A model generated the notes under the pieces. It did not search any database. It was not told the DNA's origin and saw only the letters and a program-made list of their open reading frames with translations. Positions 50,721-51,158 of a stretch of 57,127 nt of DNA are shown here, piece by piece. The position numbers and the translations under genes are program-made. The stretch's first letter is position 1; every line of letters begins with the position of its first letter. The DNA is from a virus (Duplodnaviria > Heunggongvirae > Uroviricota > Caudoviricetes), in IMG/VR virus record IMGVR_UViG_2597489870_000006, positions 1 through 57,127 of that record. The stretch is one strand, 5' to 3'.

Positions 50721-51158
50721 TTGATTTTCCTTTTATGTATACGAGCTTAAAAGGATACCACCGAGCCTGAAGTGGTGAAAAGACAGGCACATAACAGCTA
50801 AGTATTTTCAACCAAAGAGAATCCTTAGCGTTGTGGTGAATGCGGCTCAGCGCACGCGGGTTAAGGTTGAGGCTGACAGTCGACCTTCTGTGGATACCCA
50901 CCCGTCTGGTGTGCAACCTTCGCCAGGCACCGGGAGGCACCCGGCACCACAACTTTATGCTGTGTGTAGTCCTGGCGGTACCAGTTTGTACCCTTGCTTC
51001 CGGCTGGTACCGTCCTTTTTACAAAACAGAGAAGAGCATCACCGGACGACGGGCTCATAACCCAATCCATCCGGGCGGCTGCCACCGCAGGTGTTCTTCT
51101 CTGTTTTGTGGAGAAACTAATCGGCCTTGCAGGGTCGATATGATGAGGAGCAGCAAAA

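Follow-up and report, generated by a model that had tools for sequence, protein, structure and literature searches.

A mosaic of conserved phage RNA modules upstream of yfdP

STnc100 is a small RNA (sRNA) first described in Salmonella, where it was reportedly found through Hfq coimmunoprecipitation by Sittka et al. in 2008. One study placed a copy of it 75 nucleotides (nt) downstream of stx2B. STnc100 and PasD are prophage-encoded sRNAs of related structure, and PasD was found to be Hfq associated by RIL-seq (a method that ligates and sequences interacting RNAs) and was seen on northern blots (bioRxiv 10.64898/2026.05.13.724894). DicF, encoded with dicB in the Qin prophage of Escherichia coli K-12, receives its 5′ end from RNase E and occurs as a 53-nt terminated form and as a 72-nt form produced by RNase III from the read-through dicBF mRNA (PMC5069750). 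Here we describe the stretch at positions 50740-51157 of a 57,127-nt DNA from a virus of the Caudoviricetes (IMG/VR record IMGVR_UViG_2597489870_000006; this whole DNA is the window in what follows). It lies immediately upstream of the gene yfdP and is a mosaic of three conserved phage RNA modules: a core, a DicF-like terminator, and a long hairpin. Judged from its sequence, the RNA is clearly related to STnc100 and appears to be built like the DicF locus, and it reaches the curated threshold of neither family.

The RNA modules

The feature is real, conserved, and noncoding, and the plus strand is the RNA strand. An earlier note on the window had described some 400 base pairs (bp) of GC-rich, hairpin-dense noncoding sequence here, read as a structured RNA (a cis-acting antitermination or processing element, or an sRNA) or as a degraded gene. 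The G+C content is indeed 0.55-0.585 over 50800-51100, compared to 0.38-0.46 in the flanks, and all of the inverted repeats that the note named were located in 50740-51157. The 419-nt plus strand folds with -171.4 kcal/mol, compared to -135.2 ± 5.3 for shuffled sequences (z = -6.87), and none of 100 shuffles folds as well; the fold of the minus strand is weaker (z = -3.2). For the core and terminator alone (50826-51022), the fold is not significant against shuffles (z = -1.57), so the evidence for that part is homology and covariation and not folding energy. Covariation and homology to the STnc100 sRNA family together support the reading as a structured RNA.

Two of the named repeats are helices of the modules described below: GGTACCAG / CTGGTACC is found at 50977-84 / 51004-11, and the 15-bp perfect stem, at 51021-35 / 51095-51109, grows to a 20-bp helix with G·U pairs or, alternatively, to 25-nt arms with 84% complementarity. 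The two halves of the third, CGCCAGG/CCTGGCG, exist at 50921-27 / 50971-77 and are probably not partners, as CGCCAG pairs with CUGGUG (50906-11) and CCUGGCG is part of the terminator stem. The idea that CGCCAGG and CCUGGCG form an antiterminator-terminator switch was ruled out because the pairing is not kept in phage ST64B.

The core (50830-50953, plus strand, 124 nt) is a class B member of the STnc100/PasD superfamily. Its closing helix P1, GUUGUGGUG / CACCACAAC (50830-38 / 50945-53), is supported by covariation and is followed by the junction AAU (50839-41) and by P2, GCG/CGC (50842-44 / 50855-57), a hairpin resembling a D arm for which one compensating variant was seen (ACG/CGU in locus L132). 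A variable interior follows, with a candidate complementarity AAGGUUG...CAACCUU and a CUGGUG/CGCCAG hairpin at 50906-26; only two diverged sequence types share this interior. The last hairpin, P3, CCGGG-AGGCA-CCCGG (50930-44), resembles a T arm and is stacked directly on the 3′ strand of P1. An Rfam search of 751 nt in E-value mode matched the STnc100 model (RF02076) to 50808-51023 with 39.5 bits and an E value of 5e-7, covering model positions 1-206 of 206, and all elements of the STnc100 architecture were found at 50830-51020. The canonical STnc100 copies are stand-alone genes with their own promoter; in the window, leader hairpins with no promoter-like site precede P1.

Scans of viral contigs with two conserved motifs recovered more than 200 loci, which share a common framework: a P1 that ends in GGUG/CACC, the AAU junction, P2, an insert that is hypervariable and about 20-150 nt long, and a P3 of 5 bp. 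Three classes were distinguished by their P2 and P3 hairpins: canonical STnc100 (CCCCC-UGUGCGGA-GGGGC and CCGGG-AGGCA-CCCGG), class A (GCGC-AGGCUGAU-GCGC and GCCGG-AGAUCAGCA-CCGGC), and class B, the type of the window (GCGGCUCAGCGCACGCGG and CCGGG-AGGCA-CCCGG). The class A copy that was tested, from phage mEp460 (L003), gave no Rfam match even at E ≤ 0.01.

The pairing of P1 was tested on 98 unique copies that were anchored on the P3 motif alone and thus not selected for pairing. Over the four pairs outward from GGUG, 328 of 392 cells were formed, compared to 259 ± 7 (maximum, 279) in 1,000 shuffles. Changes on both sides of a pair were common: G·C occurred 53 times and A·U 33 times at one pair, and U·A 38 times and C·G 27 times at another. 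P3 shows compensatory variants as well (CCGGG/CCCGG, GCCGG/CCGGC, GCAGG/CCUGC, CCUGG/CCAGG, and GUCGG/CCGAC), the covariation of P1 and P3 extends over 98-125 unique relatives, and G·U and U·G pairs are frequent. Alongside these changing stems, the loop sequences GGUGAAU, AGCGC, GGAGGCA, and CUCAUAA are strongly conserved.

Several side observations concern individual cores. The copy in E. coli CFT073 (L349, 880-895) has a 1-nt deletion in P3, reading CCGGGAGGCCCCGG instead of CCGGGAGGCACCCGG, and may be decaying. In class A, the loops of P2 and P3 are complementary (GGCUGAU/AUCAGC, e.g., L003, 2354-2488), and locus L083 changes both (GGCGAU/AUCGC); this sequence pattern suggests a loop-loop contact like the D-loop/T-loop elbow of tRNA. 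No equivalent kissing of P2 and P3 was found in the class B core of the window. A second core flagged by our helix finder on the minus strand (36846-36987) was rejected as a chance match inside coding sequence.

The terminator module (50959-51020, plus strand) begins with a single-stranded segment, GCUGUGUGUAGUC (50959-50971), just 5′ of a DicF-like intrinsic-terminator hairpin, T, which was placed by minimum-free-energy folds and has a 13-bp stem (50974-86 / 51002-14) and a U-tract (51016-20). The stems of T covary across loci (GGCGGUACCAG, GGCGGCGUC, GGCGGCAUC, GCCCAUC, GGCGGUUAUCCA, and GUCGGCGUC), and T shares UGGCGGUAYCAGUUU with DicF of K-12. Loci that differ in their terminator stems and in the cores upstream still retain the segment GCUGUGUGUAGUC; a seed or processing site would be expected to behave in this way, and the segment is a candidate for one.

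The long hairpin (51021-51109) follows at once. A 20-bp stem (51021-40 / 51090-109) encloses a three-way junction with arm a (51042-46 / 51070-74) and arm b (51075-78 / 51085-88), all on the plus strand. An alignment of 30 diverse homologues has 94.1% of its cells paired, compared to 37-54% when the partners are slid; nine pairs are changed on both sides, and none of 500 shuffles reaches the covariation score. U·G is the commonest pair at one position, which identifies the plus strand as the RNA.

Arm a contains a look-alike of a tRNA anticodon arm, CGGG-CUCAUAA-CCC (51050-51063, plus strand), with a GGG/CCC stem and a 7-nt loop that has CAU at the anticodon position; a conserved AAUCCAUC follows. 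The look-alike is identical over 14 of 14 nt to the anticodon arm of the E. coli initiator tRNA, tRNA-fMet, encoded by metZ. All 91 unique copies that carry one of the seven loop variants of the family read NNCAUNN, with variation at the loop positions on either side; a further 11 matches to the pattern searched have unrelated loops and are due to chance. The look-alike sits about 95 nt from the yfdP start codon. Pairing of the CAU loop with the yfdP start region was considered and rejected, since the complementarity is only 3-5 bp and is not conserved.

Distribution and relatives

Of 5,426 complete E. coli genomes, 2,864 carry the version of the RNA found in the window and 2,495 carry T together with the long hairpin, so that the modules are present in about 46-53%; they are never annotated as RNA. 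The taxonomic range was taken from one-genome-per-species contigs. Among the matches listed, the P3 motif has its upstream GGUGAAU partner in 93 of 120 loci, and the listed loci that do not have it are all from a non-Enterobacterales genome or are cut off at the end of the locus. Matches to the STnc100 model below threshold were found in ST64B, 118970_sal3, phage P1, and the dicF-dicB spacer of K-12.

In the Qin prophage of K-12 (L130, NC_000913, 2949-3090), an unannotated class B core fills the dicF-dicB spacer. By folding, its P1 helix is extended to about 21 bp, from about 6 nt past the DicF U-tract to the dicB ribosome-binding site. Phage P1 (L127, NC_005856, 2198-2900) has three tandem modules between trnT and tciA, in the C1-controlled ban operon. 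Two of its P0 hairpins (P0 being the hairpin that precedes a core) carry GGGGUCAUAUCCC and GGGUUCAUAUCCC, and the opposite-strand coding sequences plp and upl, which overlie these modules, may be spurious. HK620 has a class A core between PR′/qut and the late terminator. The canonical copies are stand-alone genes, with a sigma-70 promoter of the TTGACA-17-TAAATT type that abuts P1, ending about 7 nt before it, and a terminator 30-60 nt after it. The modules have been shuffled independently, the core lying after T in Qin and before T in the window. In the window, in Qin, and in dozens of diverged homologues, a terminator precedes a helix of at least 20 bp, and a gene, yfdP-like or other, comes after the helix.

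Several relatives are associated with tRNA genes or resemble parts of host translation RNAs. Cores directly abut phage tRNA genes in Klebsiella phage KP591P3, where the core ends 1 nt before a tRNA-Ser/Arg/Met cluster, and in L014 and L050; a tRNA on the same strand lies within 600 nt of 31 of the 275 motif-defined elements, about 3-fold over expectation. In L050 (957-1087, minus strand) a canonical T arm, GGUGGUUCGACUCCACU (GGUUCGACUCC), replaces P3; this core lies 5 nt upstream of a tRNA-Arg, with a tRNA-Met also present, and has a weak match to transfer-messenger RNA (tmRNA) (E = 0.075). The insert of L083 has two T-arm-like hairpins, GGGGUUCGAAUCCCC and UAGGUUCGACUCCUA. The class A inserts of L095, L106, and L119 contain 29 nt that are 90% identical to nt 254-282 (helix 11) of E. 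coli 16S rRNA, with an E value of 3.6e-5 against a small database.

A literature search with the conserved motifs gave irrelevant matches only, and in the literature searched the breadth of the superfamily and its tRNA-like design, its presence in K-12 and P1, and the copy of the initiator-tRNA arm appear to be unreported.

Leader, coding potential, and neighboring genes

Upstream of the core are the leader modules (50757-50829, plus strand). The hairpin H0, GCCUG/CAGGC (50765-69 / 50784-88), was recognized by comparison of homologues, in which a hairpin always lies 5′ of an ACAYAAC motif while its stem varies among at least five types: GCCUG/CAGGC, GCCGG/CCGGC, GUCGG/CCGAC, GCUGGC/GUCAGC, and GCCG/CGGC. 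An alternative to H0 is an ACCAC/GUGGU hairpin (50757-76), which is terminator-like when read on the minus strand. The leader motif ACAUAACAG (50789-50797) emerged from a comparison of many loci and from scanning the window for motifs. The 5′ strand of P1 contains its complement, GUUGUG, with which it could form an alternative pairing. It recurs as ACAAAACAG, which opens the long hairpin at 51021. The hairpin P0, an inverted repeat of GCUAAGUAUUUUC / GAGAAUCCUUAGC (50797-50829), is replaced in homologues by a hairpin of another sequence, with large inserts in some, and in other phages by the anticodon-arm look-alike hairpin itself, with a full core after it. The arrangement ACAAAACAG-hairpin-CUGUUUUGUGGAGAAAC parallels ACAUAACAG-P0-CGUUGUGGUGAAUGC, and the long hairpin can therefore be described as a second, core-less copy of the leader and P0 design. 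In 118970_sal3 (L005, about 2560-2660), P0 is interrupted by an insert with a fragment, GGTTCGATTCCAG, that resembles a tRNA T arm.

The tail (51110-51157, plus strand), delimited from sequence, has a conserved GGAGAAAC, a small hairpin, AUCGGCC/GGUCGAU (51120-26 / 51133-39), and the yfdP Shine-Dalgarno sequence, GAGGAG (51146-51). The stem of the small hairpin varies among homologues (GGCGGUGGCAGCCGCC and CCGACC../..GGUCGG). The yfdP start codon, which the earlier note had placed at 51159, is the ATG at 51158, as fixed by alignment of the start codons of homologues (MSNDRMT.. versus MASERST..).

The statement that the region has no protein-like reading frame is not literally correct, since frames exist; none of them is conserved. 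The yfdP frame is open from 50840, 106 codons upstream of the start, and open reading frames (ORFs) of 75 and 49 amino acids lie inside the RNA region. Neither has a Pfam family; the 49-amino-acid ORF is matched by phrog_33599, a PHROGs family built from predicted ORFs. The Prokaryotic Genome Annotation Pipeline (PGAP) calls a “frameshifted hypothetical protein” at 50833-51143 in E. coli H10407 and at the equivalent stretch in CFT073. Among 46 distinct homologues, the yfdP frame stays open upstream of the start for as few as 1 and as many as 104 codons, in many cases for just 1-5, and insertions and deletions between homologues are not multiples of three. A degraded gene was therefore rejected: homologues have in-frame stops at variable positions and preserve the base pairs. 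Homologous phages with an intact protein gene at this position had been named as what would speak for such a gene; with no conserved frame, nontriplet insertions and deletions, and substitutions that preserve pairs, we find only the PGAP “frameshifted” calls and phrog_33599.

The window is an SfV-like prophage; a 501-nt query from this region has 100% identity to enterotoxigenic E. coli H10407 and 99.8% to Shigella phage SfV. Local gene order places a cro-like gene upstream of cI on the opposite strand, then cI (49291-49983 in plus-strand order, with a terminator at 50003-50020) and operator-like repeats with the early-left promoter, PL, as the earlier note had assumed it, at about 50030-50090. 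Two ORFs follow, ORF98 (98 amino acids, 50261-50557, plus strand) and ORF81 (81 amino acids, 50475-50720, minus strand), which overlap by 83 nt on opposite strands and each match a PHROG family of their own end to end (phrog_3195 / phrog_3311 for the pair). ORF98, the only PL-proximal ORF, has no Pfam match. Promoter scans gave no credible promoter for the RNA or for the opposite-strand ORF81; the terminator-like minus-strand hairpin mentioned above (50776-50757) is just upstream of the ORF81 start. In mEp460 and CFT073, the slot of these two ORFs is taken by a different minus-strand gene. Downstream of the RNA region are yfdP, yfdQ, and yfdR (plus strand), and the gene order onward to xis and int is the same in SfV and H10407. 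The order cI, variable cassette, RNA stretch, and yfdPQR is kept in mEp460, ST64B, 118970_sal3, and CFT073.

At the gathering threshold Rfam gives nothing in the region and, elsewhere in the window, only C4, isrK, and a tRNA. The C4 antisense RNA (79.9 bits, 11608-11695) and isrK (67.8 bits, 11758-11835), both on the minus strand and above their gathering scores, mark 11608-11835 as an antisense immunity (ant control) locus of the P1/P7 type. The sole tRNA of the window, a tRNA-Thr (CGU) at 55684-55759 on the minus strand near the right end, is plausibly the thrW attachment site used by SfV-type phages. The published sRNAs co293 (of e14) and svsR (of the NC-SV prophage) come from the cI 3′ end in related lambdoid prophages (PMC12803456). 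The counterpart of that position in the window is the cI 3′ end and terminator, at about 49900-50020, and svsR/co293 of NC-SV-like prophages was rejected as the identity of 50740-51157 on this ground. HnrS, a 66-nt sRNA from late regions, is unrelated and was rejected as well.

Possible functions and comparison with known systems

We infer that the early-left operon, transcribed from PL, has this stretch as its structured, untranslated leader. Our composite model, built by analogy and given a probability of about 0.45, is that it may serve as a DicF-style sRNA factory embedded in the operon. The PL transcript would fold into the compact tRNA-shaped core, a module for stability and for processing, possibly by RNase P or RNase E. 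The 3′ end would be formed by termination at T or, on read-through, by RNase III cleavage of the 20-bp helix right after the U-tract. The stable RNA released would be one of about 190-215 nt made up of the core and T, a shorter DicF-like 3′ piece (about 60 nt) that includes GCUGUGUGUAGUC, or both; STnc100, PasD, and DicF suggest by analogy that it would be an Hfq-binding, trans-acting RNA. T would throttle transcription into yfdP-yfdQ-yfdR and onward to xis and int, and the yfdP mRNA would then begin with the long hairpin, which probably governs its stability or its translation. In this scheme we infer which enzymes process the RNA, that it binds Hfq and has targets in trans, and whatever part the tRNA-fMet look-alike may play. 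The grammar shared by Qin, the window, and dozens of homologues, in which a presumably leaky terminator is followed by a helix of at least 20 bp and a gene, supports the factory model, and by analogy with the same three sRNAs an sRNA and a processing element seem the best supported of the functions proposed in the earlier note.

A number of points weigh against this model. The STnc100 score, 39.5 bits, is below the gathering score of 47, which is why no pipeline annotates the core, and the Rfam DicF model (RF00039) gives only 15.7 bits (E = 1.4, 50961-51015) against a threshold of 48, compared to 76.7 bits for K-12 DicF itself. The loop of T is 15-19 nt long, and its tract has only five U residues. 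The promoter scan of the window shows no promoter abutting P1, so expression must rely on read-through from PL across the opposite-strand ORF or on an unmapped promoter. We found no transcript, Hfq, or RNase data for the locus, and we propose no target for the candidate seed GCUGUGUGUAGUC. Cleavage of the long hairpin by RNase III is extrapolated from Qin, and cleavage of P1 in the window, with only 9 bp, is unlikely. Finally, the strong conservation of loop sequences suggests recognition by a specific partner, which is outside the model.

A purely cis-acting leader, in which T, the long hairpin, and the GGAG tail control only the yfdP operon and the core has no trans function, is in our view unlikely. 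Its action could be attenuation, it could provide an RNase III site or stabilize the 5′ end, or it could be a translational operator. A conserved unit of T, the long hairpin, the small hairpin, and the Shine-Dalgarno sequence does lie right upstream of yfdP-like and a few other genes, and ST64B shares with the window only the RNA stretch at the DNA level (query positions 117-421, 77% identity). Known leaders offer precedents: as in operators of the thrS type, a leader hairpin near the first gene copies an anticodon arm, here that of tRNA-fMet with its CAU invariant in the 91 copies, and the lambda N leader has an RNase III hairpin at a matching position, with a helix that, like the one in the window, is long enough for the enzyme. 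The hairpin of the window differs from both in that, in P1 and others, it precedes RNA cores rather than genes. Moreover, the same core occurs in stand-alone promoter-terminator genes and in tRNA arrays, where cis regulation would have no target; the modules are shuffled independently; and the 3-5 bp of complementarity between the CAU loop and the start region are not conserved.

The conserved loops and CAU hairpin, which the factory model does not explain, are the main reason to keep alive another, improbable reading, in which the RNA is a tRNA/rRNA-mimic decoy or docking RNA that occupies a host factor such as a VapC-type initiator-tRNA nuclease, methionyl-tRNA synthetase, or the 30S P site with initiation factor 3. 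The 14-nt identity to the tRNA-fMet anticodon arm and the 3-fold excess of tRNA-gene neighbors are in line with it, as are the inserts that match 16S rRNA or resemble T arms (L083) and the true T arm of L050. However, the variable inserts mostly lack recognizable similarity to host RNAs (two weak matches among 124 unique cores), and the similarity that exists could simply reflect descent from tRNA genes. In its broadest form, to which we give an equally low chance, this reading would have a large, so far unrecognized superfamily of tRNA-derived phage RNAs, restricted to Enterobacterales, display a hypervariable arm on a conserved tRNA-like scaffold, with associated hairpins that copy pieces of the host translation apparatus (the initiator-tRNA anticodon arm, 16S helix 11, and T arms), as decoys or docks. 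That superfamily may consist of STnc100/PasD and at least two unannotated classes, with members in K-12 Qin, P1, HK620, and T1-like and jumbo Klebsiella phages. If true, it would be an RNA-based antidefense or translation-hijacking device and not an ordinary base-pairing sRNA.

Still less probable is a processive antitermination RNA like HK022 put, with the core modifying RNA polymerase to pass T and later terminators. In its favor, the core lies between PL and a terminator, and the operon has to extend as far as xis and int; like HK022, the phage has no obvious N protein and has a cis-encoded structured RNA downstream of the early promoter; ORF98 has no Pfam match; and the conserved loops might bind RNA polymerase or another protein. 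The put RNAs, however, are about 70 nt, form two stem-loops in a V shape just after the promoter, and bind the β′ zinc-binding domain (PMC9378689). By that description the element of the window, with a closing helix and insert, 124 nt in size and at least 700 nt from PL, is set apart, and no sequence or architectural similarity to put was seen in it. In the canonical relatives, a terminator of their own lies 30-60 nt downstream, and stand-alone relatives such as PasD accumulate as discrete sRNAs; the Qin core lies after the DicF terminator; and a motif scan, which is not a rigorous search, found no core in the HK022 genome. Antitermination, as the earlier note had suggested, is thus left with no specific support.

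A feature of the DNA, either a linker for recombination joints between phage modules or a frameshifted gene remnant, is the least probable reading: module boundaries are conserved sequences, neighboring cassettes differ between phages, and the PGAP pseudogene, phrog_33599, and the 106-codon open frame exist, but compensatory pair changes and strand-specific G·U pairs show selection on RNA structure, the covariation speaks against a linker as the sole explanation, and the variable open stretch, the ORFs with no Pfam family, and the nontriplet insertions and deletions described above argue against a gene.

For annotation, these results mean that an RNA in about half of complete E. coli genomes is mislabeled as a “frameshifted hypothetical protein” and has had a PHROGs family built on it. 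STnc100 and PasD seem to form a single branch of a modular family that is much wider, has a tRNA-like scaffold, and extends to classic models, namely the spacer between dicF and dicB in K-12, the ban operon of P1, and the late leader of HK620. The shared grammar suggests a general phage way to obtain an sRNA and an mRNA from one transcript and would also account for the long-known RNase III end of DicF. The invariant copy of the initiator-tRNA arm hints that phage leaders might be connected with host initiation or with the machinery that targets tRNAs.

The core resembles tRNA in its cloverleaf-like topology, with a closing helix, a 3-nt junction, a small D-arm-like hairpin, and a 5-bp hairpin on the 3′ strand. 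Neither ARAGORN nor the Rfam tRNA model calls it a tRNA, the latter giving no match in 50550-51300 even at E ≤ 10. It differs from tRNA in having no CCA or discriminator context, a closing helix of 8-9 bp, a hypervariable insert in place of the anticodon and variable regions, and AGGCA or AGAUCAGCA in place of the T loop. Other stable RNAs with which it may be compared are the tRNA-like domain of tmRNA and those of phage tRNA clusters, namely P1/P7 C4, P4 CI, and T4 species 1 and 2.

With STnc100/PasD the RNA of the window shares the closing helix ending in GGUG/CACC, the GGUGAAU junction, a first hairpin with an AGCG-type loop, the variable middle, CCGGG-AGGCA-CCCGG stacked on the closing helix, a linker, and an intrinsic terminator in a short outer stem. 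P2 differs, being CCCCC-UGUGCGGA-GGGGC in STnc100 and GCGGCUCAGCGCACGCGG in the window. The members of the STnc100/PasD family are stand-alone genes near Q, stx, or holin genes, whereas the element of the window is inside the early-left operon and is also coupled to leader hairpins and the long hairpin.

The dicBF locus of Qin, like that of the window, is in an operon controlled by an immunity repressor, after small ORFs, and has a terminator hairpin with a helix of at least 20 bp directly behind it, ahead of the next gene. The Qin helix closes a class B core homologous to that of the window, and from the coordinates we place the end of 72-nt DicF (L130, position 2954) inside this helix, the only double-stranded RNA there. 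The 5′ tail is UUUCUGGUGACGUUU in DicF and GCUGUGUGUAGUC in the window, so that the targets would differ. The order of modules is core and then T in the window and T and then core in Qin, and the gene that follows is yfdP in the one and dicB in the other.

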